DNA of 64,000 bases, taken from the NCBI GenBank assembly GCA_030704615.1, contig CM060731.1, positions 64,480,001-64,544,000 of the forward strand. The letters are read 5' to 3'. The notes beneath the pieces are model-generated. The model saw only the letters and a list, made by a program, of their open reading frames with translations, made no database searches and was not told the DNA's origin. A program made the position numbers and the translations under genes. Shown in pieces: positions 8,616 to 53,031 of this stretch; the first letter of the stretch is position 1; each line of letters opens with the position of its first letter. This stretch comes from Takakia lepidozioides (lineage: Eukaryota > Plantae > Bryophyta).

Positions 8616-8641
8616 AGAAATCCTGGTTGGGTCTTTACTGG

Positions 8642-26995: not shown

Positions 26996-28429
26996 TCTCT
27001 CTCCCTCCAAACTTGAGCATGTAGGCTATTACAAGTGTGGGACTGTGATGGATGTGTGCTCCTTGTTTGACATCATGGCTGTTTGATCTCATTGCATGAG
27101 AAATTACAAGATTTCAGGATCAGGGCCCTGCCAACAGCAGGTGGAGCCCTCTAAGGTGCTGGTCTTTTCATCCTTGAAAGTGGCTGGACCGTCATGGGAG
27201 GTGGGTTGATGTTACTGGATATAGTACAAAAATGCGAGAAAACAAGCTGCCAAAGGTGCAGCTGGATAGAAACAGAGAACATCCCACAAGCAGGGGTATG
27301 AATTTTGCATTAGAGAGTTGACTGCAGATGAATGAAGCAGGGTCTGCAACCGACACAGCCCTCCTCTTCCTGATGTGGATTGTGGACCACCTCTGTAAGC
27401 AGGCCATGACATCACTGCTCATCAGTGTGCCCCTGCCATATTGTGCCCATAATCAGAAATGCGGTAGATGCTAACTGATTTTGGGGTGTATTGATCTATT
27501 TGTGGTAGCAAGTGAAGCAATAACACATCATTTTTCTGATTGTGTGTCTTTGTGCAATCATGTTTGCATGTTTTTAGGAGTCATCTGTCATGATATTAAG
27601 GTCTTACTTTCTGTCTACTTTGCGAAACTAACTGTGTTGCATTCTCAGCTGGCGAATTTGTTGCAAGCAAGAGGGCTAGAGTTGGCAGTGCCAGATGTTT
27701 TCTAGTATGGTATCATTGACTCTGCTCAGTTTTTGTGTCGGACTAGCATGATTTTCATGATGGAGGATGCCAAATTTTGACTAAATGGTAGCGTGGATGG
27801 TTGTCCCCAGTAAACTTACCATGAAATACTACATCTCAGACAATTTTTCAATGAATTAGATTTAGCAGTCCTCGTATTCGCGTAGTTGGTAAACGCTTGG
27901 GGCTGGATTGTCCGTAGCCTCCGCCGAAGATTGGTACGAAGAGTTGTTTGTGGAGAAGGTTCCGAGAAGATTGGTACACCCGAACAACAATAATCATACA
28001 CAACAGTGCTACCTTGTGTGAAGATCCGGCATGAGGGACTGATTTCCAGTCTTTTGAGGAGGAAGCAATGCATATCCAAACTTGTCCTGCAAACGAACAC
28101 GATGAGCCCACCACAAAGTTGCAACGATATATCTACACGCTACCACATCTCACCTTGAACTGTTGGCGGCATGGCACGCCATGGTGAGGATTGTATATGA
28201 TAGCTCCACATGTCTGCAAATCACCAGGGAGACCTCGAAACTTTGTGAGCATGACAAAGCTAAATAAAGGGTGGAGGAAGAGTCGAGGCATGGAGGGAAG
28301 AGACGGGGAGAGTTGCGAAGGCAGAGGAAGTAGCCTCACCACTTGGCTGAAGCCTTGCACTGTATTTTACAAGTCTGTGGAGAACCCAAGACCAAGCTCA
28401 AAATCCTCTGGTCCCTGGTCTATACCCCG

Positions 28430-29278
28430 TGGTCTTCAACGGCTCGCCCCCACTCACTGCCTGTACTGTCTCGGTAGGTAGAGAGACCGTCAAGGGAAGT
28501 GCACTCCGCACTCTACGTTGCTCAGCCATAGCCAAGCTGATAATCCAGGTCAAGCAATTTAGATCCATCGTTTGCCCCAACACCTGACGACGTGATGCCT
28601 CAAAAAGAGAAGGCACCGTCGTGGTCCCAGTGGAAAAACCCGTAGCCCGCTCTCGTTCGTCGGCATTAGGCTCCACTAACTGTTGCAACTTAGCATCCCA
28701 CAGAAGGCCAGGTCTATCCCGGAAAGCATGCGATCGTGGGAAGCTGAGCAGTGTAGATAGTGCTGCTCGTGGTTGACCCACCTTGTTGACCACTGCCAAA
28801 GGCGAACGGTCATCGTGTCTCACACGCTGAGACTGCCTCCCTGTGTCCAAAATGCTATCCACTGTGAGGTGTGCTAGCCGCTGCACCCCATCAAATGCAC
28901 GCTTAAGCAGTGCGGGTGGCATCAAGTTAGTCCACCATAACCATGGACGATGAGCCCGTAACCCCACTGCAGCTGCATCCAGCAACACTGCTGACCCTAG
29001 CCACTACCGGACTTGATGCACACTGGCCATCACCCTGGCCCGAGAATCGCCCATCAGTGGCACATTCTCCAAGATGTATGCTGGAGATACAACCTGATGA
29101 AGCTGTAAGTGGCGCAAAACCCGCACCATCTCCCAAAACATACCCGACCTCGAGTCTCGCAATCCATTGTCATGCCCGGCTGATGATTGCCCTTGGCAAG
29201 GCCAACCTGCCACTACCAATCAATGAAGCCAACCCCCGCTCCAAATCCTTCCTTGCGCCCCCAGCAAAGAGATTTTCT
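28430..29278 (-). pseudogene. Retrotransposon-borne C5-cytosine DNA methyltransferase domain, copy C (motifs III/IV to X)
   Basis: DLVVAGWPCQGQSSAG..GLRDSRSGMF (motifs IV-V), YILENV (VI), LDAAAVGLRAHRPWLWWTNL (VII-VIII), ERERATGF..GTT (IX), RRQVLGQTMDL (X). One in-frame stop at ~29004 and frameshifts upstream. Confidence 0.88.
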
Positions 29279-29815
29279 TGCACCTAAGCATCGTGCTACA
29301 ACATACATCGTTTTCCACCATAACATTCCTAAGCACACAATCCTAGAAAGCAATGCCACAATGGATAATAAAAGTGAACACAAGGGAAACACTCCACTCA
29401 TGAATCCACTCAATTACATAAACTTAGTCAAGCCAAGGGCACCCTTGCTAAGGGAATCCACCCTACAAAGTCCTCAACACACTCCCTCTCAATATCTAGA
29501 GCTATGGAGGTGAGAGAGGCTCATGGAGGCTCAACTACAAGAAGATTAGCCCTCCTCAACGCTCACAAGGGGAAAACCCATCCCCATGTCCCAAGTGAGG
29601 TTTGACGCCTCACTTGGCATGTGAGACCAAATGAAATCCCAACACACAAAATACAAATATGAATATCCAAAATATCCTAGTTAACTAGAAGTAGGTAATT
29701 CTAGTTAACCATGACTAAAACCCTGACAGCTGTCGTGCACCTAAGCATCGTGCCACAATATACATCGTTGTCCACCATACATTCTAAGCACACAATCCTT
29801 GAAAGCTATGCCACA
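29279..29815 (-). repeat. 3' LTR region of retrotransposon copy B
   Basis: Begins TGTGGCA just after the purine tract (29818-29827) and ends ..GGTGCA. Shares GCACGACAGCTG with the LTR of copy A. An ~82-bp direct repeat occurs at 29279-29361 and 29736-29816. Confidence 0.7.
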
Positions 29816-32800
29816 ATCGCCCCCCTAGCTGGTGATTAGGTCCCTCTAACACCGGATAGCTGACAAGTATCCATCTCAATAAGCTCATCGCTTGGTCTTC
29901 AATTGCAGTCCCAACACCTGAAGTCGATAGATCAAGAGGCCGGATGCAAACGTAGCCCCATCGTTAGTCGCCTTCATGCAATCCATGATCTTCAGTTGAG
30001 TATCCATGGCATTGAAACCCCACTAGCTAGATCACTTGTCCGCCTCACCATTGTCATGCCCACTACCTCTGTCCAAGGCATCGTGGACACAACCATTCTC
30101 CGATAGGAACCTCCTCAAGTGGCGGTGTCAAGCATCCCATGTACCACCCCCTTGAGCATTTGTCACATACCAGCATGGTGGCGGGACTACCAACATGCCC
30201 AAGTAGCATGCAACGCAATCCTGTAGGTACCACTGCAAGGTTGGGATCTATTCTCCCATCCACATGTGGAAGGTCACATGGCGCAATTGCGCACATGGTC
30301 TTTCCATACCATGCCATCTCGACCCTCCAGAATCAACACTCCTGAAAGTAACACCTCCCGGACCCTTAGAATCACACATCCTACTGTGACATCCAAAGTC
30401 GTAGGCGTTGTCTGCTGTAGATACACATAGTCCCTAGGGTGGAAACGCCGAACACCTGGCCGATATCCCCCTCCACGTATAGTAACGTACCTCAATGTGT
30501 CTCGGTGTTGGGCAATAGCAAGGTTCTCAAAAGCCATAGGCATGACTCTCTTGAACAACTCTGCCCGTTGGGCACATGCTTGTGTCCACACATCCGGATC
30601 ATCAAGGTTGAGGACTACTGCAGTCTCCCTGCAAATAGATGCAGGCAAATCTGGCTCTCGGCCGAAGAGTTGAAAGTAAGGCGAGAAGGAGGCAAGTGAA
30701 GCTTGTTTGCTGAACCTATAGCCCATAGCTAGCCAAGGCAGTTGGAGGTCCCAATCTCCTAGGTGTCCCTTCTGCAAACCGTACTTACGCAAACCTCTCT
30801 TGACTGTCTGAACAACTCTCTCCGCCAAGCCATCAGCCTCGAGATGATCCCGAGAAGTAGTGCGGTGATCTATCAAGGCTTGCTCACACAAAGCCTGAAA
30901 CTCCCCCAAGAATTCTCTCCCCTGGTCCGTGTGTACCTCGGCTGGAGCACCAAAATGGCTAAGCACTCGATCTTAGAATGCATACGCAGCCCCCTCACTT
31001 GCCTTGTCAGGCAATGCCACCAGTTCAATCCATTTGGAGAAGTGTTTCACCATCACCAACACATACTTGTTGTGGCAAATCGTCAGTGGCAATGGGCCTG
31101 CGAGTCAAGACTCCAACGATAGCCCACACCCATAATGGGTAAAGGATGCAATTGTGGAGTAGGGGTGTTGAAAGAAGCCCGCACTCTACCACACACCATG
31201 CACCTTGCCACTAACTGTTGTACATCCGTGTGCATGCCCCGCCACCAATACTGCCCTTGCAGCAAACTATGAGTGCGCCGCACCCCAAAATGTCCCAACT
31301 CCTCATAGGCATGGCGTACCAATCACCCTCGTTGTGTTGGATGAGGCACAATCCTCACTCGTCCATCCTCCCATATTCGGAGTAGGTGGGTCCCCTCCCA
31401 CTTGAACCTCTTGGCTCATTGTAGGATCCGATCTCTTTCCTTAGCAGTCACACTGGCTGCTGTCTCTCTAGTACAAAGGTAGCCAACACTGCTGCATCTT
31501 CATGCACATCCTTAGCACCACCAAGCTCCTCACTGATCTCCGGATCGTCATGCACACCATCTACATGACCAATGCTATGGTATGGACCAGCTTGAGCTCT
31601 CATTGCTAGGATGCACAAAAAGGCAGATGCATGCCATCCTGGCACCATCTCTTCATCCGTCTCACCATGCCACCGAGCTCCATTATCATCATGCTCGCTC
31701 GTGGATTACGACTCAATCCATCTGCATCCCGATTGACAATACCAGCTTGATGCACCACCTGAAAGTCGTATTCTTGAAGCATAAGTGTCCACCGTGCAAG
31801 CTTCCATGTAAGTTTGTCTGACTCCATCAGCCACTTCAATGGTTGGTGATCCGTGACAAGGGTGAAGAGATTGCCATAGAGGTAGCATCTGAAATGTGCC
31901 ACTACCCATACCGCAGCTAGACACTCCCCTTCATATGAGCTATACTTCGCCTCGGCATCATTGTTCGAGCGGCTGGCATATGCCACTACGAACTCTCTTC
32001 CCCCGTCATCCACCTGTGTGAGCACTGCTCCAATTCCCAGCATACTCCAATCCGTATGTAGCTGGAAAGACCGCCCCCGAATAGGCCGTCTCAGAATAGG
32101 TGTAGAAGTCAATCGAGCCTTGAGTTCCTCAAAGGCTTCCTCCTGTTCCTCTTCCCACTACCACTCCTGACCCACCTTGGTCAACTTGGTAAGAGCTTTT
32201 GCAATGCTACTAAATCCCTTGACAAACCGTCGATAGTAGTTTGCCAATCCCATGAAAGCATGAACTCCGCTCACATCCATGGGACGTGGAATGCATGCAA
32301 TGGCCTCCACCTTTGTCTGTTGAACACCCAATCCTCCAAGGTATATCATGTGGCCTAGATACTCAATCTGATCGTGGAAGAACTTGCACTTTCCGGGGTG
32401 CAGTTTCAACCCGTGCACTTTCAAGCGCTCAAAAACCACCTGAAGGTATCTCTCATGCTCCTCAACCGTAGCACTAAAGACGATGATGTCATCAATGTAG
32501 CACCGGGCGAAGTCTAGCCCCGCGAGAATCCTATCCATGTCCCTCTGAAACTCTGCAGGAGCATTCTTCAACCCAAATGGTAAGAACCGCCATTGGTACA
32601 AGCAATCCTTCCCATGTTGGTCAATCCCCCAAAATGCCGTCTTTTGCTTGTCAGCCTCTTTGATTGGCAACTGGTGGTAACCGGATCGCAAGTCCAATGT
32701 GCTAAACACCTTTGCATGCCCAATGGCATCAAAGATCTCCTCTGGAGTTGGCATGGCATATCTATTGGACTTAGTCTGACGGTTCATAGGAAGATAGTCC

Positions 32801-34007
32801 CCACACATCCTTCTTTCTGCCCAATTGCCATAGATATCCTTCTTAGCTGGCATCACCGTTGCTGAGGCATACTCCCCGCCTGATAACTCCACCAATCCAG
32901 CATCGAACAACTCCATCACTAGAAGCATTCGTGTCATTTACCACTGGGGTAACGACTCATTTTGAGTCGTAAAAGTCAAAAAACTGGGATCGACTGGAAG
33001 TTACAACAGACTAGTTACAACAGACGTGGTAGTGGGTTGGACATCCAATGATTGGAGTGGTAAAGGACGCAGACGCGCGAACAACTGCTCAGCGATTAAT
33101 GCAATTAATGCTGAAGAACCACGTGGCGTAACCAGGCGGACCGCCCGTGTGTCTGACCTTTTGGGCTGACTTTGACTTTTCCCTCCGGATGAGTGGACTG
33201 ACTCACCCGGGGCGCGGTGACACATGGATGCGGACGTGGATGCCGATGTGGCGGCGCCGCGACGAGCGGCAATGCTGCCGCGTGGCCACGGGCCCAAGAC
33301 GCCACATCGCAGTCGGCCACATCACTTGGAGTGCTGCATGTGACGTCGCAACAGCCACTGCGAAGTCGACTGCACAACTTCCGCAGACGAATCTACAGGG
33401 ACCACGTGGAGAGTGTGTGGGTCGACGCGTGGCTCGTCCCCACGCAATGCAGTGACGGGTACGACTGCTAGTGGAAAGACGCAGAGTGCTTGTGCCATCT
33501 CGGGACTGCTTTGGCCAACTCCGCTGCCACTATGCTAGTTGGTTGCACTACAGTAGGAAAACACAAAAATGAGCACTTGTAGTGGTTTGTGTGAGTTTCC
33601 AACTGACCTGCATTCTAAGCTGAAAATATGGTTCTGATGCATTCTACTGGTTTTAGTGGTTCACCCATATGCAGGGGGAATTGAGAAGCAATGATACTGA
33701 GCGAGACTCAGAACACAGACCACGATGCATGCACAACATCACGCTAATGAACCAAATAGACGAGGCAACAGGGAGACCAAAGACCATCACACATACACAT
33801 AGAAGGTGGACGGACACGACGACAAGTCAGGAAATGTGATATTACATTCAAATTAGAGACCGTCACGGCACACCTGCATATGAGCAAGACTAAATGCCAA
33901 CATACATGGTTGCCGGACATCACTTAAACTGTCATGGCCCAAATTCAAAACTGGTAACGTGAGTATCATACACACTTCTATGAGTATCATTACACACCCA
34001 ACAGGGA

Positions 34008-37000
34008 CTACAAACATGAAATGTCACTACTTTCACCTTTCCTCATACTCTTCTCTGGCCACAAAGTCACCGTGCCTTTCACGTGCGCTAGTGTGGTCTG
34101 GGGGGGGGCATCGTCCACATTTGGGCAAGGCAATGTAACACTTGGAAGCATGATCTCGTGGACTTTCACCTTGTACCACCCGGATAATGTCCTTGCAGTG
34201 GAACTTGTCAACCCCGGCTATTCCCACCACTTCCGCCTTGGCGGCGGCTGTCTTTGACCGCTTGTCATGGGGGTTCAGGAGAAACACAGGATCTGATATC
34301 TGCAGACACCAACATCAGGGTCCACTCAGCACAAACATAGCAATGACAGGGTGAAAGTCAAGCGCAACTGGGCATGGAAACGATCTTGGTTGCCACAATA
34401 CTGAATCAGCAGCAATTCACGGTGTACCAACGTACCTTGAAGCGAAGCTCGTCGCTGAGGGTGGCAACTGAGGAAAGCTGCCCACGTGTCTTCAACTGCA
34501 GCAGCAAAAAGAGGTTTAGTCAGACGGATAAGAATAACATGAACTCTGGTGGTTGCAATGGTATAAACACACCTCCACGGAGCAAGCTAACAAACACCCT
34601 GCTCAGACCCTGCACACTACAACTTCCTGGCAAAAATAACCCTACTAAAAACCAGCCAGGCAAAGCAAGGAGCCATGAATGCATGCCTGGGGAACCACGT
34701 CCTGCTGCGATGATGGTGCGGGGACAGCCCACTCCTCTTGCACCTGCAATGAATACACATTGCAACGCTTCAGAAAGTGTATCCATAAAGGAAACCAACC
34801 AAGTAAGTTTGCGGAGAGGGGCTGGGAACAACCATACCTTGGGCGCTGCCTCTCATGCCGGGGGGGAATCCGGAATGCTGCCGCCGTAGCACTATGTCCT
34901 AGGCGCAGGACCAACCTTCTTCACATTCGACCCCACTGCCACTCCCTGTACATGTGGTCCCTGCAAAACATATAGTGCCAGCCTTGCGTGAGAGGGCATC
35001 CGGGGGAAACAAAACAAACATGGACTTTGGCTTCGATGTCATGTTGCAAACAGTAAGGTTAGTTTCACCTGCATGGGCGCAGAAGTACTTCCCCAACGAC
35101 CCCATCCTCTCCCACATTCAAGCTGCCAGTCGGGGTCAGCTTCCGCGTGCTTGTGAAGACACGCACATCCTTGGAGCAAAACAAATCTTGGCAGTAGGGC
35201 CAGACTGTTTCTAAAAGGTAGTCTGAATCGGGCCCCTCACTGACATTGCCAGTGACATCAAACGACAATGGATGGACCATTTCAAAGGGGAGTTCCCCCT
35301 CCCCTTGTGTGGTGAATCATCCACTAGGAGGGTGTTGGATTCGTTAAATCCAGAAAATTCCGACCACACCCTCGACAGTCTCTTCTGTAAGTTCTGTACG
35401 GCAGGCCCTTTTGTGGGGTGTGGCTCTGTCAAGGGGTCACACTCCTCTTGTGACCACACAAAGAGGGGAGAACCCTTGACCCCCTGCATCACCACTTTGA
35501 AGATGTCTGCAACATTCCCCTTGGAAGCACAGGACCATATCCCAACGTAGAAATACCGGAAGAGAAGGTTTAAAAACTCGCAGACCTGGGGCCTTGGGAA
35601 AACATACTTGTTGGTGGTCAACACCCATGGCCAATGACGCCTCGGGTTGGGCTGAAAGTTAGGAATAGAGTGGCACAGGATCCCGTTCAGGTCTAGAACA
35701 ATTAGTTTCGACTTTTCTATGAAAGGAGCTTTTGAAGGGGTGTCACGGGGTCTCACCTCAGTGGGTTGGGAGACAACAGTCACCCCGGAGGGCAAAGTTT
35801 CGGTCCCCCTGCAGCCTGGACCAGGCAAACTACCACCCTCTCCCCCTACAGCTTCCCCTTTTCCCCCATCATGAGCAATGACCCCCCCATCGTCCATGTC
35901 ATCCCCACCAACTTGCTGGACCTCTCCCTCTTCAACGAGTGGACCCTGCCCCCCACTGTGAATATCATCAACAACAGCCCGGACCTCTCACATCACATCC
36001 CTACCCACTACATTACTTCCTCCTTGTCAGGTACAATGGTCGCAGCAGGGGGGTCTTCCATAATGCCACCGTCACACCCCCTTTTTGCCCCATCATGAGT
36101 TCCACTATCTTCTTCAGTTGTGCTTCCATTCCCCTCTCCCGCTCCGCAGAGAGAGCCGCAAGCCTCTCCAGGGCCCCGATGCGGGCTGCCATTGAGTTTC
36201 CCCGCTCCCTACGCATACAAACCCCCCCGTACTGTTAAAAACCAGAAGAAGAGGCCGAATGTGCAGGATTTCAGGCATTCGGAGATGGCTGGGTTTGGCA
36301 TAACACCCCCTCCTGTACCATGCGTGGGGGCCCCACATACCCACCAAATCTTAGTACAACAACAGATTCATGAATGGAAACCGGACTTCAAAACATACCT
36401 GGCTCAAAACAGACTCTGATGGGGTGCCAGTCGCAGCGTTCTTGCACTCCGCCCCGAGCTCGGACAGTGACGGGCTCCGCGCTTTGCGTCTTTTCTGTAT
36501 TTGCCCATCCACACACTGTCAGTACAAAATGCCAGGAGCATATGGACAAAGCACTGCCCTGCATATCACATAACAACTAATTCTGCACAAGCAATAAAAC
36601 CCACTCGTGGGTGTCTCTTCCATCAGAACATGCACAACGTAAGAGCAATGAGAAGGGGTGAGGGAGATTACCAAACGGGCTGCTTGGCCTGCAACTCCTG
36701 CCCGGCCCCAACGCGAGGGGTTCGTGACACAAGCACGCGCTTGCTTCATCCCTTCAGCCTTTGCAAGTCCACGAGGGGACTCCCAGTAGGCAACAAGCTT
36801 ATCCCAATAGGCGGGTTCAGTGTTCATTGGCCTCACACCAGTCTTCGCCCATTTATCTTTCAGTTTTGCTCTTTCTCCTTTCATTATCTTCCCACATTGC
36901 TTCACTATAAAATCACGATTGGCAGGGATAGGTGTGTACTCGTACATTCCATTTATGCCCTCTATTACTGTTGACATGGCACTCTGGGACTGCTGGTCAA

Positions 37001-37415
37001 TGTCTTGTACGCTTGAGTCAAGGTAACGCAATGCCAGGCCACGCAAATCACGCTGCCAGTGTTCCTTACCTTCGCAGCCAGCATTGATGACTCCATTTCC
37101 ATGCACCTCCACCTTGTGGCGCTTTAGCCCTGCAGCCACCCTTCCCTCTCCATCTCCTTCCCATTGTTTCATGGCATGGCGTCGTTCCTTCCTCAGCTCT
37201 GATGTCCGTTTCCTGCCCCCATGCTCTGGAGCAGCGCCGTCATACGTTGTGGGGGGTGACTGATGTGTGCCGGAGGGGGGAGGGCCGTATGGAGATGTGG
37301 GAGGCCCCCATTGTGACGTGGCAACATCAGGAAGCCAGCGCCACAACCCCGAAGCAGGGGGGGCTCCCCATGGTGCACTCTGTTGTGGAGACCATCCGGC
37401 AGGGGTGGGTGCCAA
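34008..37415 (-). pseudogene. CACTA ORF2 (TnpA-like), multi-exon and decayed, containing an FCP1/NIF HAD-phosphatase-like domain
   Basis: TnpA-like YWDKLVAYWESP..KAEGMKQARACV..SRWGRAG (36670-37200); coiled coil ~36080-36220; KLIVLDLNGIL..FPRPQVCEFL..VGIWS..NTLLVDDSPHK (35290-35715); C-terminal GWYKVKVHE..LPCPNVDDAPPQ..LWPE (34008-34290). Confidence 0.7.
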
Positions 37416-38104
37416 GGTTGGTGTTGGTTGGCATTGTGTGGTGGCTGTGAGTGCTTTGCTGCAGCTTCACTCCCCTTCCGCTGCCAAAAACATCCCACAC
37501 ACAAGGTGCATCAGCTGTAGTCCTACTGAACACAACGTCACCAGAGCACAAACCATCCCACAACCACAACTATGGATTGGCTGACCTCAAACCCACTCCC
37601 CTGCAGCGCAAGTGCCAAAAACTGAAAAGGAGAGGGACAGAATGTCCTCATAACATGTAAGCCCATTCATTGGTGAAGAAACAGAATGTGGGCGGGTTCA
37701 CATCAGTACCACATGAAACTTACCAGGAAACAGAACATCCATCCGGGTTTTGCACATATCCAGTGGACATCTATTCACACAATCAGCAAATGGCTGTATG
37801 GCGGAGCCCAGCAACGGAGCCCCAAAAGGCCTAAAGACTCTCAATGTTGGTAAACACAGGTGCAGACACAATTCAATTGAAAGGATATTGCAGACCTAGC
37901 CTCGTTGGAGTTATCAACGCATATAGCAAATGCGTACTCCAACGCAGGTGCAATGACGTGACAAAGCAACATTTCCTTGACCTAAAAACTAGTCCCTCTG
38001 CACACAGTGGTAGACCTGAAGGTTTTTCCACGATGTCCTCCCCCATGTCACAAATTGAAAACATGTTCAGGGATTTTTTCTGCCTAACTTCATTTTCTGC
38101 CCAA

Positions 38105-39230
38105 TCAGATCTCCTCTACGCTGATGATGTTGCCCTTTTGGCACAATCCCGGTCTTTCTGCAACGCCATCTCAAAATTTTGGAACAGTTCTGCAAAGACT
38201 ATGGGATGCAAGTCAATCTTAGCAAGACCAAGATCATGGTCTTCAATGGCCAGGCTGATCGTAGATTCATCTTCAACCAGCAGGAAATTGAGATTGTCAA
38301 ATCATACCGGTACCTAGGTCTGGTTATCCACTCCCCCAAGTTTCACTTTGCAGCCACTGCCTTTGGACAGATTGACTAAAGGTAAGGGGCCTCCGTCCGC
38401 CTTCACGCCAAATGCAAGCAAATACATCTGCGGCATCCCCCGACCAAAAAGTGGTGTTTGACACCGTCGTCAGCCCTGCTACCATCAATGGTTGTGAGTT
38501 CTGGGCACCTGGTGTCCCTGTCTCCTGGTGGGAAAAGAATTTGGAACCATTACAGTCATCTTTTCTCCAAGCAATGCTTGGCGCCAGGAGCACAACTCCA
38601 TCTCAGATCCTAGGTGCAGAGTTCGCATGTGTACCATTGCAATCCGAGGCACAGTTCAGGCTTACAATCTTTCTCCATAGATTGCAGGCCCTTCCACCCA
38701 AAGGGCTAGTGGCAAGGGCCCTCACAACATCTATGAGGCTCAAAGCTGCAGGTTTCGGGAACTCCTGGTATGCTCGAGTGGACAGTTTATTGAAACGTAA
38801 CGGACTTTCTACTGCTTTCCTATTACCAATGAACCCAGATGAGGTGGACATCACATCCAGACATGACCGCAACAGACTCATTCGGAGAGAGCTTATGGAA
38901 TTACATGTCAAGAGAACTTGGATGCTACCCAATCTCACAACAAAGCTCCACTTCTATCGAGAGACATTCTTGGTGCTCCGCGATGATAGAATCTTCAGAC
39001 CAAATTACCTTTCAGCACCCTTACCTCCTTCCCTCTTGAGGGCATTGGGGCGGTTCAGGGTGGGTTCCCACAACCTACGGATAGAGACTGCAGATGGGAA
39101 AACCTGCAACGGGAGGACCGCCTATGTCCAGCTTGCATAGGGCGCAGCAAGGAAATTGAAACTGAAGAACACTTCTTCTTCTACTGCCCTGTATACTACG
39201 AGATCCGTTTGAACAACTTTGTGGATATGT
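38105..39230 (+). mobile_element. 5'-truncated non-LTR retrotransposon (LINE) fragment nested in the CACTA element
   Basis: LLYADDVALL (RT catalytic motif), MQVNLSKTKIMVF..YRYLG, and C-terminal RFRVGSHNLRIETG..LCPAC..ETEEHFFFYCP zinc knuckle, with frameshifts. Confidence 0.88.
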
Positions 39231-41329
39231 GCATCCCAGTTTCAGTTTCAGGAGAACTCAACGCCCAGAAAACATGAACACAAGTAGGGGTAGAACTCAC
39301 CTGCGCAGCGGTTTTGTGCCGTTTTGCGCACCTTTTGGAGAGACTCTGCAGATGGAGGTGCAATTTCCGCCGAACTGTCCTCCACCTCATCGTCGTCGCC
39401 CATGCTATACTCGCTTGTGTCAAAATCCGAACTCGAAGACCGCCACCGCTCTGCCTTCCCTCTCGCACCGACGCCATCTGTACCGGATTCAGTCGAGCCA
39501 GGCGGGGGCTCCTTCGCACCGCGGGGCTGGAATGTGCAGAAGTGGGAGGAGGTGATGCTGCCTCGGCGGTCGAGCGTTTTCTTACTAGGCGTGGACATAG
39601 ACCATGACAAAGATGAAGACGAGCGAGGACATAGACCATGACCAAGACAAAGACGAGCGAGAGACCAAGACATGCAAAGGAGGAAAGAAGGACAAGGAGG
39701 GGAGTGTGATCACACACCCCCCCGATCTGTAGTGAAGATCCGGCCGTTGTTGATTTCAAATATGAACACGTGTCGTGCATCGACACTATGGCCTTTTCGA
39801 CTTTGAGACGTTAAACCCTAAACCACTTACAATCCTCCAGACAACTAGATGTAGTGATTCACACAACTGACATGGATCCGTTAACTTTTTTTCGTTCAAA
39901 ATTAGGCGAAGGAAACACACTGCAATGATGCCGTGTATGGCTCCGCTTTACATGCATTCTTGGAGAAAATGCGCATGATGTGTGAGAAGTGAACACAGTG
40001 CTCTGCCAAATGATTCAGCAAAAACAAACTCAACTGTAGTGGTTCTCCCATCGCAGAGAAGGGTCCATTCGACACCCATCGCACCATGCCAGGTTGAGGT
40101 CCTCACACACACACCTACACACCGAGAATTTGCGAACCCACATCAGTTGGAGAACATGGAAATTACCCCGTGGATCACATGCAAGCATGAATGAGAAATG
40201 GTTTATGTTACATGGGAGATTTTTTGTACCGCGACATGCAACTCTGTCTACATACTCATAAGTCGTTGTCCCAAGACCCAATGGACAGGGGAGGCCGTGA
40301 GTCTGTACCACAAATGGTAATCATACAGCAGAGGGTACTGCTGCCCAACGTGCAAAAGCCGCCGGCTGCAGGATGCTAGGCATGCGAACTCGGCACAACA
40401 CGCCTCCTCTGCACCCCACTCCGTCCCAACCAGTGCAAAACACCGTGCATGCATTGACTGCCGTCTGGCTTTCTCTCCAGGCATTTGGGGGTCTGCATCT
40501 GCTACACGTAAGTGTCTTTGAATGCGACGATCAAAGATCCGGTCACTTGCAGTTGCCCGTCTCAAGGGCAGCATTGCAAGAATCAGAATTAAGTAAGAAA
40601 GATGGTGAAGAAGTTGCAACAGCAAATGAGTGAAGTGGCAGGGCGATGCTCCATTTTTACATGCTCCCTTCCCGCCATGGTGATAGAGCCACACATGGAC
40701 TCCCTTCCCGCCACGGTGCAATTTCACGGCAACGGACGGGATTGTCCGCCGAAACGTGATTTGGAGATGGCCTAAGACAAGTGGCGCAGGTTCTGGCCTT
40801 GTAGTCAGGTTGGTACACTTCAATGCACACTTTCATACACATTCAACCATATGCCCAGATCACAACGTCCTCAAATCGTGAAAATTGAAATTCCACGTAC
40901 TCCTTCCGATTCCCTCACACACACACGAACTGTAGAGACAGGGGTTTTCCAGGATGTCGTTGTTTGAGTCGATTTTGGTCATTTCTCTCAGTGTCTTGTT
41001 GAAAAGATTCTAGTATGATGGGAGCATCGGGATGGCTTTAAAATGGTTTGCTGTTGAGTGTAACTTTTCATCATGTTGTGGAATCTACCGGTTGGTATAA
41101 AATGTCAACTGTCTTCTGCCAAGGATGTGCGGCTGAACCTTTCAAATTGAGATTGCAGGAGGAGGGAATTGACGGTAGTGAAATGGGAGTGGCAGAGCCA
41201 AATTGAGGAATCTCTGCAAAGGAGAATCCGGCCCCCTACAACGGCATGCACAAACAGCATTGAAGAGGCTCCCCAACAAAAATGAGTTCCCCTCGCCCAT
41301 GCGGAGGACTTCCAATTAATCACCCCTGT

Positions 41330-44300
41330 AGACAAATACCCGAGATGACAGGTTGTGGGAAAGAGAAGTGGCACGTGCCCGAGCCCTTGGGCTTTCAAGG
41401 ATGCCATGCCCCTGTGAACGTTTTTGGGCACTACAAGTAGATTTGAGACGGTGTGCGCCACACATCTCCTTCACCACAAAAGACATGAAGCATTTTGGGT
41501 GTGGATTGGAGATGGACCTGCAGACGAAGACGATGAGGAGTGGGCACAATTGGACAATGCACACCCCCGAGGGAGCCATACAGACAGGCCAGACGAGGAC
41601 TATGTCATGGGCGCAGGACATGAACCAGGCATGGACGGAGGGGTGGAGATTACTCGAATGTTGCAGGAAGCATTCCACATCATGGACGATGCTGAAGAGG
41701 GGGACGGCGCTGCGACAACTGGGGATGGTGATGACGCAGGAAATGAAGGCATTCACGTGGGGGAAGGCGTGGAAGGAGGTGGAGATGGAGAATTGAATTC
41801 TGCACACATGACACTAGAAGAAGCATGTGTGCCACTGTACGAGGGATGCAAATCCACAAAGCTTGCTGCCACCATGCTGTTGATGAACCTGTGCACAACC
41901 CACGGTGTCTCAGACCATTTTGTGGACGAGTTGTTCTCTTTGCTTCGGCTGAACTTGCTTCCACAACCAAATGAAATGCCAAAAAGCTGTCACATGGCCA
42001 ACCAAATGATTGGGAAGCTCGGCCTCAACTACGTGAAAATACATGCATGTCCAAAAGTCAGAAGAGAGTACAAGGATGCTATGGAGTGCCCCAAATGCGG
42101 TGCAGCCCGATACCATGATGTGGGCAGGTTACAACAAGCAGCCAAGGTGTTGAGGCACTTTCCCCTTATCCCCCGTCTATTACGAATGTACAAATGCAAG
42201 ACCATTAGTGAGCTCATGACTTGGCATTCCAGGAATGCCTCAAACGATGGTTTGGTAAGGCATGTCCCAGATTCCCTTGCATGGAAGCATATAGATACAA
42301 CTTGGCCCGATTTCGCCGAGGACCCACGCAATGTGCGATTGGCTGTATCTACGGATGGAGTAAACCCATACGGATCAAAGAGTTGCACATGGTCCACATG
42401 GCCCGTGCAGTTGGTGGCATACAACCTGCCACCATGGTTGACAACAAAGAAATTTTTTGTCATGTTGTCTCTCTTGATTCCAGGCAAGGAGTCTGTGCAA
42501 CCATTGATTGAAGAGCTACAGGAACTATGGATTGGAGTTGAAGCTTACGACATTTTGAAACCAGTAGGGCAACGGAGTTTCACCCTCCGTGCCATACTCA
42601 TGTGGTCAATCCACGATTTCCCCGCATATGGCCTTGTTGCGGGTTGCAAGACGAAGGGCTACAAAGGGTGCCCCATTTGTGGGCCCTATGTGGATTCACG
42701 GCACTCAAAGCCACTAGGGAAGACAATATACATGGGGCATCGACGTTACCTTGCAAGAAACCACCCCTACTGACGAGCAGGAAGGCACTTCAATGGATGT
42801 GTTGAAAAGAGAATGGCACCAAATGCTGTGACACCGGAGGAGACATTGCAATTTGCAAAGGAGAAAGAGGCGTTCATGGAGATTGGAGGGAGAGACGGAA
42901 GTAGTGCGGATCCAGCCATGGAGCATGGGGTGAAGCGCCGGACAATCCTTTGGGATTTGCCATACTGGAAGGTGCATGAATCCCCCCCCCCCCCCATTCA
43001 CTCACTTTCTTTCACATTGTGCTTCCTAGAATTACCTTTACTGTCAGGAGTCCTTCCACCAACTCCTAAGTCAGTGTAACTACTATGCAGTAGATGTTGA
43101 AGTCGTACACCTCACTGTGGAGAGGATCGTGGAGTTGTTGAAAGCAGAATGTAGTAACATGGACAACTTCTGCCACATATTCTACTTTTTTTTCCCATAG
43201 AACTTGGTGTCATGGGAGGACATTTGGCATTTCAGAACCTCTTGCAGCGATACCTCCTGGACCCCATGCATTGTGAGAAGAACTTCTGCGAGAACATTCT
43301 GAAGACTATCTTTGGGGAGAAGGATACGATAAACGTACGAAAGGACATGGAGATTGAAGGGATATGGTCACATCTGTGGCTAAGGCCTGATCCATTTAGA
43401 CCAGGCAAAGTGCTCATGCCAGCAGCATCATACGTCCTGACCAAATCAGAGCAAGAGGATTTTTTGAAGACATTGGGAGCCATGAAAGTGCCAACCGGAT
43501 TCTCGGGTGCTTTTCAAAAGCATGCCATAAACAAGAAATGGTCGGGGATGAAGTCACATGATCTACACGTGATGATGCAATAGATTTTGCCAGTGTGCAT
43601 TCGGGGTACGATGGCGCCAGGTCCTCGAACAGCCATAATGCGTGTAAGTCGAGTGTTTAGGAAGATTTGTGCGAAGGTGTGGGATCCGAGGGACATTACA
43701 TCATTGCATGAGGATGTGGCTATGACCCTATGTTTGCTGGAGAAAGAATTCCCTCCATCATTCAGTGGAGTACCCCACAACAATGGAGGAGCTGCAGCCC
43801 TTTACAGTGTGGGTCAGATCTGGAATTGCAGTGTACGCATCAGAGAACGAGGACCCAGATGAGGGCATGGTGAGTCTGTCATTCCCCCCAGGGCTGATTG
43901 CCACTTCGTACCGATCAATGAAAGCATATGGCAATCACTATAGAGTGGACGATGCCAACACCAGCCTCCTGGTGACTTATGACAGCGGAGTGGCATCATT
44001 TTTTGAACAAGAGAGTAGGAGCTGTGCATGAGATCGGAATCCAATTTCATGCCATGTGCAATATGGGAGTGATCAAAGAGATCCTTAAACTAGACTATGG
44101 TCTTGTGAAGCCAATTCTATTCCGTTGTTCTTGGGTAAAAGCCAATATGGTAGGAGAGAATGCCACCATGAAACGGGATGAGTACGGGTTCCTCCTTGCT
44201 GATTTCAGAAAAATGCTACCACAAGATGAAGAGCCATTCATCTTCCCATCGCAAGTTGAGCAAGTTTTCTTTTCAGATGACACCCATGCGCCGGGATGGA

Positions 44301-44560
44301 AGGTGGTTCTTCACAAGGACCCCCGGGCCAAACGAGTCGTGGCCGACGTCCATGATCTGGACCTAGGGGAGAATGCCGACCACGAGGGTCTGAGGGAACC
44401 ACAAAATCTACCAGATACGGCGGAACCAGTCTCTTTGGAAGGAGCAGTTACCTTTAATGAGGAAGACATTCCAGGGTTGGTAATTACTGCAAGGCAAATT
44501 GCAGATGTGGGTAGTGAAGGGGAAGATTATTTGGATACAGATAGTGATTTTGTACAGTCC
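41330..44560 (+). pseudogene. CACTA TnpD-type transposase (Transposase_21 plus downstream DUF4218/DUF4216-like regions) with nonsense mutations
   Basis: KIHACP..CPKCG, DPRNVRLAVSTDGVNPY, YNLPPWL, IHDFPAYG..GYKGCPICG, LDPMHCEKN, GMKSHDLHVMMQ, LEKEFPPSF, LFRCSWV, EPFIFPSQVEQVFF. Stops at 42771 and 43581. Confidence 0.93.
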
Positions 44561-45304
44561 TGCAAGCGCGCAAGGGCGAGACAGTTAATAGTATCGATAA
44601 TGTCCCGGTATGTGGTCCGTACTGTCTTGTGAACAAACCTTTTTTTGTTTTGCCAATATTGTTTCTGACATGTGAGGAGAGGATCGTCTTCATGTACGGG
44701 AAATAGACGTGAATGTGTGCATGCATTTTCTGGCCCAGCTGCATGCTTTCCAGGAACAAAGACCAGTGGAATGGGGGGTGTCTCCAAAGGAGCAGGACCG
44801 AACGACACCTTTTTGTGCTTCCCTTGCTTATTTTCTCACCGTTGTTGCATTCTCCCATTTGCCCAACAGCAGCACTCTCGAAGCAACAGCATGACATATG
44901 TTGCAACATGGTCTTCTTCACCAGCGAATGAGCTTTTTTGCTATATGTACTGCCACGTCCACATTAACGTTGATCCCTGCAAGCACTTGGCAAGACACCC
45001 CAAAGCCGCAAATCCAGCAACCACCACAAACACATCTAATTGTTGTAGTGACACGGGAATAGCTCACTTGTAGAGGAATTGAACCTCCAGCCAAATGAAT
45101 GGCTCTGCCCCTTGTAGCACAAGTGCGATGCAAAAACAAGGTGAGTACAAAATGAAGAAGCACTTACGAGGTCCCCATCCCTCGGATGGGCTCCCACTTG
45201 TGCTCTGAAACTGTGCAAGCCTGACTAGCACCAAATTGCATGAATCTTAAGCCTGAATGTCAAATGCAGGTTTATGTCGCGATGCAGCACACCATCATCT
45301 AACC

Positions 45305-46015
45305 TGTAGTTTCCAGTTTCACTGGTGTCACAACTGCCTTCAAGTCAACATCAAAAGTAAGTCCACCTATGCGCAAATCGCAGAATGTCTCATGACACCA
45401 TCTGCCGCCGCTGGTTTGGCATGATATGATTGTAGTTCACAACCTTAATGAACGCTTTCAGCCTTGACCTCTTTGCGATCTTCTTCTGTGACTACTTCTT
45501 CATAATTTATGAAAGGGAAAAGCAGCTACACATCAAATTCTTGCAAGTACAGGGGGGTACTCAAGCCTCCTTGGGAGAAAGAGTGCCATAAACACAAACA
45601 CATCCTTAAATGTAAAAATTGGAGAAGCGAACGTCTGGTGGCAATAACTGCCTAAACTAGAATTATAGTCCATTCCAACGCACATGTAAAGGGTCGGATG
45701 ATAACTCGGAATCCCAGTTGGAGATAATGAGACGAATACATGACTATTTTGCGAGTTTCAACTTTCTTGGAGGTAGTTTCCAGTTTCTCTGGTGTCACAA
45801 CTGCCTTCAAGCTGGGTTTAGAGGAATTAAGTCCCACTCGCAAATGCAGAATGTCTCCCTCATCTGCGTGGGGAAAATGGGGTTTGGCATGATATGATTG
45901 TAGTTCACAACTTGTGAGGGCATATTCTTCAGCCTTGACGTCTTTGCGATCTTCTTATATGACGCCTTCTGCATAACTTGTGAAATGGAAAAGTAGCTAC
46001 ACATCAAATTATTGC
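45305..46015 (+). repeat. Diverged ~240-bp direct duplication inside the CACTA 3' region
   Basis: GTAGTTTCCAGTTTC.CTGGTGTCACAACTGCCTTCAAG...GGTTTGGCATGATATGATTGTAGTTCACAAC...AGCTACACATCAAATT at ~45305-45545 and ~45772-46015. Confidence 0.85.
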
Positions 46016-47419
46016 GATGCCACTCAATGGCACTATGAACGTTTCGAGCATGCTGTCAGAAAACTAGACGGGCAAAAACCCAATTCAGCAGCCTCACCTT
46101 GCGTGGATACTTGGGAATTGATGCCAGAAGGGCATGCCCGTATGCGCGCTCCATCGTGCCTCCATCCAGCACATTCTGTAAATGATGAATGACCAAGACC
46201 CCGATGTCACACCGTTCTGAGAAGCCACTACGTGTGCTCACAGTATACGAAGGCCTTGCCGTGTCAGGATTTCCATTCCCACGTCCCGCCATGTCCGACG
46301 CAGCACTTGCATCCTTGTCTCTGCCAGGTAGAGGCAACATGTATTAAAATATCTATTCCCCCAAGGCCACATTTTGTTTACCTCTTTTTGTGAAAGCCAC
46401 GTCAGCAAATGTGCTGCCGAGTCATGGGTGCAATGAATGCGCAGTGGTTCATGGAGTCGTTGAGTCGATTACATATTCACTTTAATGAATAAATATCTTT
46501 ATTCCATTAATCGAATTAGGAAAGAAAATTTGTAGTCGCATGTGCAGTAATTACAACCACTTGTAATTTTGGCTTTTTCAAATTTTATGTATTTACGCAA
46601 TTCGTAAAATAGCCCGGAATTCTGCTACGACTCCGGAGTCGTTGACCCCACTTCTGTCCGCTGTCTGAAATGCCCCCGTGGGCCCACATTGTCTGTTTCG
46701 ACTCTCCAGTAGTCCCGTTTACTACCAAGTGGTTCCCGGAGTGGTCGCGGACGAATCGGAAAAGACACGAATGCTTCTAGTGCATAGTCCGTGACTGGAT
46801 CAATGACCTCTCCATGTCACTATACCGGTAGGGCCTTCGAAAGATTGGCGTGTCACTTGCCAAATCAATACGAATCTCCTGACCCTTCAAACTCCCCAAA
46901 TCCTTCAAACCGAAGGCAAAACAATTTCTATAAGCCCTTAGAAATCGCTGGATCCTCCGTCTCTCTCCTCCGGTGACTGTAGGTCCAACATCTGGTTCCC
47001 AATTGTCCTCAGTGACTACAACCTTGGGTACACCAGGCTTGGAGGTAGGAGACGAATCCTTTGGTTGCTAGATAGCAACCTCTTGGGCCTTGTCCACCCA
47101 ATCTGACTGTGGCGTAGCCTCCACTTGCTCCGCCATAGCCATGAGAACATCCTCTGAGCAAGAAACATTCTCAACCTCTTCAAAAACATTGGCCACCTTG
47201 GCCTCTAACTGATCCTCAGTGTATGGCTATCCTCACTCCTCATATTGCTACTTGAGAGATCCAAGGACTTTCTCTTTCTGCATCTCATCCCACATCTGCC
47301 ATGAGTGTTTGCACCCCATGATCCTATGCTCGCCCCCACTCACTGCCTCCACTATTCCGGTTGGCAGAGATGGTGCAATATCCAATGGAAGTGTAGAAGT
47401 AGCCACCAATGCTTGCAAT

Positions 47420-48045
47420 CTCCATTGCTCAGCCATGCACAAGCCAATGACCCATGTCAAGCAATTGAGATCCATTGCCTAACCCAACACCTGACGCCAT
47501 GATGCCTCTGACAGAGCTGACAGAGCTGGCACAGCTGTAGTACCCGTGGCAAACCCCATTGCCCGCTCGCGCTCATCCGCATTGGGCTCCACTAATTGCT
47601 GTAGCACACTGTCTCAAATCAATCCAGGACCATTGTCTCGAAAAGCATGAGACGAGGGAAAGCTCATGAGCGTAGGCAATGCTGTACGTGGCTGTCCCAC
47701 TCGATTGACCACTGCTAGAGGTGGACGGTCATCATGTCGCACCCTCTGTGGTTGCCTCCCTTGGTCCAAAATGCCCTCAACCATGAAATTGGGTGGCCGT
47801 TGAATGGAATCATATGCTCTCTTGAGCAGCTCTGGTGGTGCAAGATTGGTCCACCACAATCGAGGTCGATGCGCGCGTGATCCCACCGCTGCTGCATCCA
47901 ATAGCACCGCCAATCTAATCCAAGACTGCACTTGATGCACACTGGCCATAACCCTGGCCCAAGAGTCCCCCATAAGAGGAACATTCTCCAAGATATAGGC
48001 TAGAGATTGCACTTGCCTCGTTTGCAAGTCACGCAACACTCTCAA
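47420..48045 (-). pseudogene. Retrotransposon-borne C5-cytosine DNA methyltransferase domain, copy B (motifs VI to X)
   Basis: YILENVPLMGD, LDAAAVGSRAHRPRLWWTNL, ERERAMGFATGTT, RQVLG*AMDLNCL. In the same reading frame as the RT N-terminus at 47070-46783. Confidence 0.88.
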
Positions 48046-50482
48046 TGTCGCGCACCTCACTTCGGTAAGCTCCCCCCTCAAGTCATAGTTACTCGCTTGA
48101 TGCGCGCGCCTAACTCCCAACCTGGCCGCGGGGCCAACTTGGAGCTCCGGCTGCTCACCGGGGCATAACGGTCCCCCTTTGATCTCCCAAAGAACCCTCC
48201 AACGATTTGGAACCAGCGGAATTCCCTTTGGTAGTTGGCAGTCCGGAACAGCTCCCCACTCTTTGGTCGCTTTCCGGCTCGCTCGCTTATTCACTAGTTT
48301 TTGGTCACCAACGGGCTTGCACCGTTCTCGGGGTTACTACTCCCTATATATACTTCTGTAGCTGTCCGCGGGGGTTTCACAAAAAACCATGCCATTTTAT
48401 GGCGAACCACCACGAACACCCTTGAGGGTTTAAACCATCGGGTTTAAGAGAACCAGCCAGATCCATGGAGGGAGGGAGAGAGAGGGAGAGAGAGGGAACC
48501 CACCAACCATCCCCTGGTATGGCAGCTCCTCATGGAGTGAGTGTGGTATGCACTCGCCCCGTAAGGGAGTGCATACCAGACCCCATCACATAAAGGACCT
48601 CCCTCTTCTTTGTAGCTTTTATTTATGGTTACAAAGGAACCATAGAAATAAAAAAAAGCCTACAATCTCAATTCTCCAAGGTCAAAAAACAAAACAAGCT
48701 GTGACAAGCGAAGGTACATGCGGCTTATGGTTTGGAATATTAGGTTTCTAACATAGCCTGCACCTACACCTGCAGGGGAGTAATCCCCTTTGTTAAAACG
48801 CAACAGGGTGGCAATTCCGACTTTTTTGCCGGATCAGCTAGCTCAAAACCGTTGTTCTTCAGAGCCCAGGCTCCCCCATCAAGGTCCCACGAAACGAGTG
48901 GATTTTAAAAAAAAATAATATTAATATATTTTTAATATATATTTTTTTCACTCTGCCTGTTCGCGGCCTTCCGTGGCTCCAACCGCCACTACTCCTCACG
49001 GCCCGCCCTAGGCACTCATTGGCCACGGGCTATCCAGTGATACCCCGTGGTACCACTCCCACGAGCCTTCACGGCCTGCCATCCCCACGATCTGGTCACC
49101 GTGCCCACTCGTTGTGTCCGCACCACGACTTCCAACGGTCACAGTCAACGGTCACGGTCAACCATCACGACCTGGGCTCGTGGTATCTCGTGATACCGCC
49201 CCAACGGCCCATCACGACCACTATTCCCTGCGTTCCCTGGAACTCCCAACGAGTTCCCATGCGTTCCCGAGGCGTTCCCGGCGTTCCCGAGCTCTTTCTG
49301 AGCTGGGGTTTGCTCCTGCACCTGCTGCCAACGAGCTATGGCTTCTGCGAAGCCACCAGACCTGCTGCCATGCTCTCTTGGGCTCTCACGACCCACCAGA
49401 GGCACCCTAAACTCAACAAACAAACATTATGCTGCCCAACAAGCTTCATTTCTTCATGAAGCCCACAAAAACAAATCTGAAAATACACACATTTACAAAC
49501 TTGGTGCACCTGCACTTCTCATGTATATCCCCTGGCTCTAGGGCGCCTCGTTGCTGCCCTTCCAGCCTCGTTCTTGCCACTCCAAAAACCCTTACACTGC
49601 TGAGTTTCAGATTGAAACTCCAACTCAACACATGCTTCACAAGTGCACTGATTGGCACACAAGAGGGACCAGCCCCCTCTCTTCATGAGCTTGGAACTAA
49701 AGCTCCCAATGGGCTGCGATGCATCCCCTCGCAGCTCCACCATTCGGCTGCTCCTCATCTACCTGCAACAACTAGTTTTGGGCAGAAATACCTGGAGCTG
49801 ATCATATCATCTCCAACCTGCAACGCGCTAGTTTCCCATGCGCAGCCCACATTTCTGCAGCTCCTTAACTCGGCCTGCAGCTGAAGAAGACAACCACCAG
49901 TTCGCCCACTCGTGGCCAACATCTCCTCCGCTTCGCACTATAAGCCCAAACTTGCTTGCCATAACGTTGAGCTATGCAACGCCGCTCTTCAACATAGGCT
50001 ACCCGCCTCTTTATCCATGGCAAACCTGCAACCTGTTCGCCTTTGCACTCTATCCGCTTTGGATAGGCTCATGCACGGCTCTTTGCACTCTAGGCTGAAC
50101 CGCTTCTCATGATCTGAAAACACAAGTGCTGCAACTAACTCAAACCTGACACTCACAGACTCGAACTGATCTTTCTCGAGTGATTAAGAAAAGGAAAGAT
50201 ACAAGCATACAAGCTCTCTCAAACTCACACACTTGCACATGAAAACATCACTCATATATTAAGTCGAGCCAAGTGCACCCCATGCCATGGGGAATCCACT
50301 AGACGCGGTGAGGCTCAACTCGAGGAAGATGAGCCCACCGCGATCTGCCGTGAAGATAACAACGCCGGGTGCCCAAACATGTATTGGCCCCTGGATTGAT
50401 ACTTGGATCAATCCCAAATGTCAATATATAAAAGCTAGCTATTTCCTAGCTAACTTCACACTAGTGGTAAAATAACTTGACA
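48046..50482. mobile_element. Unclassified LTR-like repetitive sequence truncating copy B
   Basis: Abrupt junction starting TGTC at 48046; TATATATA at ~48345, AATAAA at ~48647, ..TGACA at 48706 and 50482. No TSD or coding domain recognised. Confidence 0.35.
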
Positions 50483-52776: not shown

Positions 52777-53031
52777 TAAGCATCCAACATAGCTAATTAT
52801 CGTATACCTAACATATGTATGTGGGTATGTATGTACGTGGAGGAAGTGGAGACGATACGGGTGGACAAAAGGAGGGGGAGGGTCTGCGGACATTGCCAGG
52901 TCACGCTGCGTTGCTTCTCGGATCGATCGCCCGCCATCGCTATACAACGCTCAAGGTGCGTGGGGAGCGGTGGTGCTGTTAGGGGAGAGAGGAAGGGGGA
53001 GGGATTTGTGAGGTGAGGGTTGTGAGGAGCA

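Follow-up and report, generated by a model that had tools for sequence, protein, structure and literature searches.

What is a C5-DNA methyltransferase (DNMT) domain doing in front of the reverse transcriptase (RT) of a Ty3/Gypsy-type retrotransposon in a moss genome? The question is raised by a stretch of 64,000 nucleotides from Takakia lepidozioides (GenBank assembly GCA_030704615.1, contig CM060731.1, positions 64,480,001–64,544,000), referred to here as the window and numbered from its first letter. An initial annotation, made from the letters alone, had proposed a Gypsy family that encodes its own DNMT in frame with pol and carries a PHD finger next to the integrase. We found that the window holds decayed copies of Ty3/Gypsy-type elements with a conserved DNMT3-like enzyme, and we are practically certain that the DNMT-bearing family is real. 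On the sequence evidence, newly made cDNA of the element is the likely substrate of this enzyme, which would methylate it within the particle prior to integration, a reading to which we assign a probability of roughly 0.55.

One element, element B, lies on the minus strand and is split by a CACTA DNA transposon with nested insertions (32917–46782, strand not applicable). This transposon begins with CACTAG, has a 19-bp terminal inverted repeat, contains Pfam matches to the CACTA transposase domains Tnp2, DUF4216 and Ptta, and is flanked by a CAT target duplication (32914–32916 and 46783–46785). Two minus-strand frames, one ending in LIQSRTM at 46783 and the other starting with ELFDAGL at 32916, read through a single RT, and contigs in three of four sequencing runs jump from 32913 to 46783 (X1, n = 6; X2, n = 1; X5, n = 1), which indicates that uninterrupted copies of the element exist in the DNA. 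The proposed splitting of one Gypsy RT by this insertion was thus borne out. Apart from the insertion, element B consists of the C-terminal half of a DNMT3-like domain (47420–48045; motifs VI ENV, VIII HRxRxW and IX–X, with two stops and the 5′ part lost), the post-DNMT linker that forms the tail of open reading frame (ORF) 1 (47071–47419), a TAG stop followed by CAA CCA (47062–47070), the start of ORF2 up to the RT N-terminus (46783–47061), RT (32161–32916), RNase H (31702–32157), a frameshifted integrase with an HHCC zinc domain and a DDE core (30280–31439), and a PHD finger at the integrase C-terminus (30069–30224; PF00628, E 8.7e-9). RT, RNase H, Integrase_H2C2, rve and PHD were all recovered by Pfam in the window in the predicted order, and Ty3 RT was the best match among solved RTs (E 9e-46; next best 8e-27). 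The DNMT shares its frame with RT, as had been claimed, but the conserved stop at 47070 ends a Gag-protease-DNMT ORF ahead of it. Positions 48046–48333 belong to a different, unrelated high-copy repeat that truncates element B, and for this reason the window lacks Gag, protease and motif I, as previously noted. Pfam and Rfam gave no match for this repeat; together with its upstream sequence, it is also found in a run from a second organism (X8, one contig).

The class of the DNMT was assessed from a second copy and from its relatives. Piece C (28419–29273, minus strand) spans DNMT motifs III through X, with GWPCQ at 29207–29193, and the start of the ORF1 tail; the initial annotation had recognized this copy and its GWPCQ motif but had drawn its bounds at 29278–28430. 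Translated with stops read as X, 28401–29216 matched PF00145 above the cut-off (E 1.9e-9), whereas the corresponding part of element B (46783–48333), which lacks motifs I–IV, gave no Pfam match. The two copies are 76% identical over 195 columns. In sequence comparisons, P0003, a relative from Calypogeia, was closest to DNMT3A/B (E 8e-11), DNMT3A being the best match in the PDB, followed by DRM (4e-7), the HaeIII/HhaI enzymes (HaeIII, 4e-4) and DNMT2 (9e-3). Its predicted model has a mean pLDDT of 56, with values mostly of 70–94 across the DNMT core, and a Foldseek search with this model placed solely DNMT3A/B/C among the top 50 ranks listed (E 1.6e-15). The motif order is unrearranged, both in piece C (IV–X) and in P0003, P0005, P0006 and the metagenome loci L001 and L009 (I–X). 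The ranking of matches favors the suspected resemblance to DNMT3-type enzymes in sequence and, as far as the model goes, in fold. Phage DNMTs cover approximately 30% of P0003 at 26–32% identity, far below the retroelement relatives. The top ESM Atlas clusters, which are PF00145 clusters, one eukaryotic and two viral, tied at 0.96 and say nothing on origin, and a viral contig search gave 20 pattern matches, none of which was confirmed.

We calculated dN/dS by the Nei-Gojobori method to compare the constraint on DNMT with that on RT. The ratio was 0.09 for the DNMTs of element B and piece C (dS 1.9, a value near saturation), 0.10 for the RTs of element B and piece A, the latter described below, and 0.12–0.16 for DNMT between locus lineages. 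Among close decayed copies, the ratios were 0.37–0.63 for DNMT and 0.45–0.56 for RT. The DNMT is conserved as tightly as RT. Across 17 diverse relatives, the residues F-x-G, W-P-C-Q and E-N show little or no variation. Two of the three tests that the initial annotation had set itself came out in its favor: PF00145 is matched, and dN/dS is 0.09, with relatives that keep motifs I and IV together. It is very probable that selection has kept the DNMT for some function in the life cycle of the element.

The order of parts in the family is Gag (CCHC)-protease-DNMT-stop-RT-RNase H-integrase-PHD. A search with piece C returned 37 longer proteins, headed by those of Calypogeia fissa and Marchantia polymorpha (54–74% identity) and followed by those of Sphagnum and Haematococcus. 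The bryophyte proteins P0003, P0005 and P0006 are Gag-protease-DNMT polyproteins with motifs I, IV, VI and VIII, and relatives of this type were found in Marchantia, Calypogeia, Sphagnum and Mesostigma, the Mesostigma protein showing protease-DNMT. In 80 metagenome loci picked by their DNMT and scored wherever the flank was long enough, RT lay downstream in 59 of 67 and PHD in 27 of 30; motif I (72/78), protease (54/62) and Gag (39/44) were found on the upstream side. Locus L009 is nearly intact, with 2 stops across 2064 codons. Of 168 scored proteins, 84, the largest group, have a second arrangement, RT-RNase H-DNMT-integrase-PHD, which came from a search with 233 matches and occurs in the chlorophytes Haematococcus, Monoraphidium, Chromochloris and Hariotina; most algal proteins contain all four DNMT motifs. 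A total of 281 clusters formed at 50% identity reach E 1e-30 or lower against P0003. Quick trees placed the window copies with the bryophyte-type rows, with support of 91 (DNMT) and 100 (RT), and the DNMTs that follow RNase H formed a separate clade (99) in a DNMT tree whose outgroups were phage enzymes only, with no cellular DNMT3 or Klebsormidium row. The two DNMT types share 35–45% identity, and both are far more distant from DNMT3A and phage enzymes, a pattern that suggests a single DNMT capture with a later move within the polyprotein. By summed contig depth, a rough measure, the Gypsy parts are about ten-fold more abundant than the CACTA core. No RNA data were found among the sequencing runs matching the window DNA. 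Three algal-type polyproteins (P0025, P0029 and P0030) have a Tudor-like stretch beyond PHD, and a C-terminal segment of P0025 (D-P-W-A-G-T-G followed by S-P-W-F) resembles a putative second methyltransferase of the amino type.

The stop that separates DNMT from RT is a feature of the family. Of 60 loci, 55 have a stop at one and the same position, 17 codons ahead of the first conserved pre-RT tryptophan, while stops elsewhere in DNMT, RT and RNase H occur at 1.2% per codon. The sequence TAG CAA CCA is present in both window elements and recurs in the loose contig ends of runs with window DNA (37, 13 and 14 contigs). The ORF1 proteins of Marchantia and Calypogeia end 90–96 residues past MDLN (motif X), and that of L001 ends 96 residues past it. 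The idea that all stops are decay was rejected on the 55 of 60 count: among the six stops in the DNMT and linker of element B, the one at 47070 is family-conserved. The earlier view that all copies are decayed therefore stands in that the copies are broken, but does not extend to this stop. TAG CAA CCA fits UAG-CAR-YYA, the readthrough motif of tobamoviruses, and murine leukemia virus (MLV) Gag-Pol is produced by UAG readthrough (PMC3159437). With the stop in this position, the DNMT is the last domain of ORF1, and its output would be expected to match that of Gag.

The initial annotation had also counted a third copy at 4500–8228. We found that piece A (plus strand) starts at 4539 and ends at 8223; it contains, as claimed, the post-DNMT linker, here the rest of the ORF1 tail, followed by the conserved stop (5554–5556, TAG CAA CCA), RT, RNase H, a partly deleted integrase, an intact PHD (7685–7831) and repeat B1, and it carries a small CACTA-ended insertion (4689–5537, strand not applicable). 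Contig depth jumps at about 4536–4547, with loose ends at 4539. Piece C ends at 28419 (GYR), and piece A, which lies on the opposite strand, begins at 4539 (HPW) with the base that follows directly in the numbering of the element; contigs from other copies continue from the start of piece A into a C-like tail. Pieces A and C are thus likely the halves of one element split by a 23.9-kb inversion (4539–28418), and the outer flanks of the inversion may likewise derive from one sequence cut in two. These flanks had no match among the 80 metagenome loci, and the inversion is accordingly argued solely from the exact abutment of A and C; contigs crossing 4538/4539 have just 29–30 letters on one side. 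Repeat B2 of element B adjoins piece C at motif III (29274/29273), which indicates that element B was inserted into piece C at its left (upstream) end. Three independent copies were rejected on account of the abutment. The window likely holds two elements, and the case for a family is made by read depth and homologs, not by a count of three copies.

The ends of the elements differ from those of ordinary long terminal repeat (LTR) retrotransposons. The 3′ end of element B (29817–29274, minus strand) reads B1-GC-A2-B2: a G run resembling a polypurine tract (29818–29826) directly precedes repeat B1 (29731–29817, ending in CACGACA), which is followed by a 2-bp GC spacer and repeat A2 beginning with TGTCA (29363–29730), and by repeat B2 (29274–29362), identical to B1 in 80 of 89 columns. 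Related loci begin with repeat A (approximately 340 bp, TGTCATG to TTTTCA) and end with the G run and repeat B (approximately 115 bp, ending in CACGACA), sometimes followed by the 2-bp spacer and A and B again. Of the loci in which repeat B was found (n = 27), 20 terminate with a single B, 4 show B-A-B, and 3 show B-A cut short; the layout A-coding-B-A-B is represented by the 3′ end of element B and by L010, L063, L070 and L071. The termini are TG..CA, and full elements have a perfect 4-bp target duplication in seven of ten cases and one with a single mismatch in two of ten, as scored in the related loci alone, the window copies being without 5′ ends. The two complete identical LTRs expected of full-length copies were not seen in the window or in these loci; the ends are A..B-A-B or A..B. 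In place of the tyrosine recombinase and missing target duplication of DIRS/Ngaro elements, we found an rve integrase and 4-bp duplications. An 11-mer after A1 could pair with a stretch of repeat A that lies about 31 nt below a TATA (10–11 pairs in 12 of 22 loci), which suggests Tf1-like self-priming; REXdb predicts self-priming for the Tcn1 elements of mosses (PMC6317226). In L021 and L024 (approximately 5930–6170), an inverted PHD-distal 3′ end with repeat B abuts the 5′ leader in place of repeat A, a rearranged or auto-integrated copy.

The G run before B1 and the primer-site-like sequence after A1 predict a standard linear cDNA of the form (B-A)-body-(B-A). The integrated forms start at A and end at B, from which the integrase likely acts where B meets A inside this cDNA, at a CA-nn-TG junction. 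We hold this integration through the B/A junction or through circles only tentatively, at somewhat less than even odds. A-body-B would then arise from linear, doubly cut cDNA or from a one-repeat circle, and A-body-B-A-B from a two-repeat circle, the sole form with the redundancy for another round of copying. A credible competitor, which also falls clearly short of even odds, takes A-body-B as the product of recombination between B1 and B2 after insertion, similar to a solo LTR, and A-body-B-A-B as linear cDNA made by DIRS/Ngaro-like priming, with no cutting of circles. Such recombination would likewise preserve the 4-bp duplication, and the complete A2|B2 joints number just four (two clean, one with extra bases and one with substitutions). 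However, the short form occupies 20 of 27 3′ ends even though B is only about 115 bp, the G run and the primer-site-like sequence predict (B-A) ends, and the foamy-virus integrase has been reported to cut two-LTR circle junctions (PMC1180852).

In the cycle that we propose, ORF2 would be produced by readthrough of the stop, so that synthesis and packaging of the DNMT would keep pace with Gag, and those of RT and integrase would reach a fraction of that level; minus-strand synthesis would be self-primed; the DNMT would methylate the cDNA inside the particle ahead of integration; the integrase would cut the internal junction; and the PHD would steer integration by reading histone H3. The PHD lacks the tryptophan two residues before the zinc-binding histidine, which suggests that it does not read H3K4me3. 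Two Dnmt3 domains of dinoflagellate retrotransposons have demonstrated de novo CG activity, and methylation of cDNA has been proposed (de Mendoza 2018, PMC5890265).

Several observations weigh against this proposal. None of the window copies is intact, motif I did not turn up in this moss, for which no genome-wide check was made, and the low dN/dS of element B and piece C comes with the near-saturated dS. The loci were selected by DNMT and include many near-duplicates, so that their counts are not independent, and RT relatives without DNMT were not sought; the DNMT is stop-free with all four motifs in just 2 of 46 in-frame loci. The window copies have CpG observed/expected ratios of 0.51–0.64, on a par with the CACTA transposase (0.53) and with a PPR gene (0.54), and thus reveal no special scar of self-methylation; the ratio for L009 is 0.27. 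The stop is followed by CAA CCC ATG in the main locus subfamily, which fits the readthrough motif more poorly and offers an ATG for reinitiation, an ATG that is missing in the window copies, L009 and L067. In P0349, a distant relative, a single ORF that is free of stops encodes both DNMT and RT. The self-priming site gives 10/11 pairs at the expected place in 12 of 22 loci, and other sites give 9–11 pairs with G-U. The Gypsy DNMT of Klebsormidium was inactive in yeast, a result that its authors call inconclusive (PMC5890265).

A different use of the same activity, which we consider unlikely, is self-restraint after integration, in which the DNMT silences new or resident copies, spares the haploid-dominant host and so favors the element's lineage. 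This option was raised by de Mendoza 2018 (PMC5890265); the site of insertion would host the integrase PHD as well as the DNMT3-type enzyme, and the family is retained in small, haploid-dominant genomes. The placement of DNMT with Gag before the stop nevertheless predicts particle-scale amounts, a better fit to a cDNA substrate, and a high copy number, with about ten-fold the depth of the CACTA core by the rough measure above, has been reached anyway. Still less probable is that the element retains the DNMT fold for binding DNA or building the particle, holding for example the cDNA or the B-A junction, with catalysis minor or absent. The inactivity of the Klebsormidium enzyme in yeast (PMC5890265), the lack of CpG depletion beyond background in the window copies and the toleration of DNMT at two polyprotein positions would suit such a use, but the near-invariance of F-x-G, W-P-C-Q and E-N in the 17 relatives and the four motifs in most algal proteins are expected of an enzyme that is used catalytically. 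A chance neighbourhood of a host DNMT pseudogene or captured fragment and an ordinary Gypsy element, to which the broken, rearranged window pieces and the lack of a Pfam DNMT match in element B might have pointed, has a negligible probability, as the initial annotation had held, and is already refuted by purifying selection and by an arrangement of parts that is the same across dozens of loci and named proteins of liverworts and mosses; contigs that run from piece A into the DNMT-adjacent tail also speak against it.

The combination of these parts into a larger picture is rather doubtful, although it is consistent with the sequences: an ancient Gypsy-type clade of the green lineage, from chlorophytes to mosses and liverworts, would have been missed by LTR-based catalogues, its active DNMT3-type enzyme, made at Gag levels through a leaky stop, would pre-methylate the cDNA, and, with an internal att-like CA-nn-TG junction, only two-repeat circles would found new active copies. 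If true, this would amount to a retroelement with a DDE integrase that uses circles as productive intermediates, and to a mobile de novo methyltransferase in land-plant genomes.

The window has several other features. The large CACTA transposon carries an ORF for a NIF/FCP1-like phosphatase (35214–35987; PF03031, E 7e-12) and a Ptta-like ORF, and its nested pieces include a high-copy LINE-like fragment near 37800–39200. Small CACTA-ended insertions with long inverted repeats lie at 4689–5537 and 8385–8920, and a tandem array of approximately 115-bp units at 9340–11100. The host genes encode a PLS/E-class PPR protein with an E-motif (1–1047), an RRM protein (26255–26990), an intronless 6-phosphogluconate dehydrogenase (53026–54519) and a Sel1-repeat, HRD3-like protein (57985–62877). 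In a tree, the 6-phosphogluconate dehydrogenase joins a clade of five rows with 99/97 support, the other clusters of which contain proteins of Sphagnum and of Physcomitrium/Ceratodon, and it branches outside both of these pairs; this marks the host as a moss, likely an early-diverging one, a position that would fit Takakia. ARAGORN detected no tRNAs in the window, and Rfam gave no matches.

Elements of this kind are already known (de Mendoza 2018, PMC5890265). KnitGypsy-Dnmt3 of Klebsormidium nitens, likened here by its published description and not by its sequence, shares the Gypsy domain set, a Dnmt3-like domain without the DRM rearrangement, purifying selection and a DIRS-like A-coding-B-A-B layout; in contrast, its DNMT is placed in the Pol ORF, whereas the present elements have a land-plant host and a DNMT that closes the Gag-protease ORF at a conserved stop. 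The text of that article does not mention the PHD, short A-body-B forms or 4-bp duplications, and three of its supplements hold no match to Marchantia, Sphagnum or PHD. SymbioDIRS-Dnmt3 of dinoflagellates resembles the present family in having Dnmt3 in the retrotransposon polyprotein at two positions, with split repeats, and was shown to methylate CG de novo, but has a tyrosine recombinase instead of the HHCC/DDE integrase, TG..CA ends and target duplications found here (PMC5890265). The Tf1/Sushi and Tcn1 chromoviruses, as described in REXdb, share the Ty3/Gypsy domain order and predicted self-priming and occur in mosses, but have a chromodomain in place of PHD at the integrase end, two full LTRs and no DNMT; the REXdb survey would miss split ends because LTR-FINDER needs two full LTRs (PMC6317226). 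Plant DNMT3 and animal DNMT3A/B share motif order I–X and give the best sequence and fold match, whereas the element DNMT is only about 23% identical in structural alignments, lacks PWWP/ADD, is intronless and is borne by a retroelement. The in-frame UAG between structural and enzymatic ORFs, and the UAG-CAR-YYA of the window copies, recall MLV gag-pol and tobamovirus readthrough (PMC3159437); the stop here follows protease and DNMT instead of Gag, and its readthrough is predicted. We found no description of such elements from a land plant or a chlorophyte in the open literature, figures and supplementary trees aside. Sarre 2025 (PMC12344493), in its available text, gives the range as "streptophytes and dinoflagellates" and cites the 2018 paper, and the available text of PMC11982613 and PMC10952607 does not mention such elements. 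New here are the land-plant and chlorophyte range, the two DNMT positions, the conserved stop, the PHD at the integrase, and target duplications with split ends.

These results turn DNMT retrotransposons from two algal oddities into a widespread, selected feature of the green lineage. Many gene models of the genetic model Marchantia polymorpha carry the domain, among them Mp4g09160 and Mp8g17980 with intact DNMT domains, and counts of bryophyte DNMT genes, which include retroelement copies, should be read with caution. The conserved stop predicts the amount of enzyme, and the split ends with target duplications revive the question of whether circular cDNA is productive for a DDE integrase. The role of the element methyltransferase, open since 2018, becomes testable in a tractable land plant.

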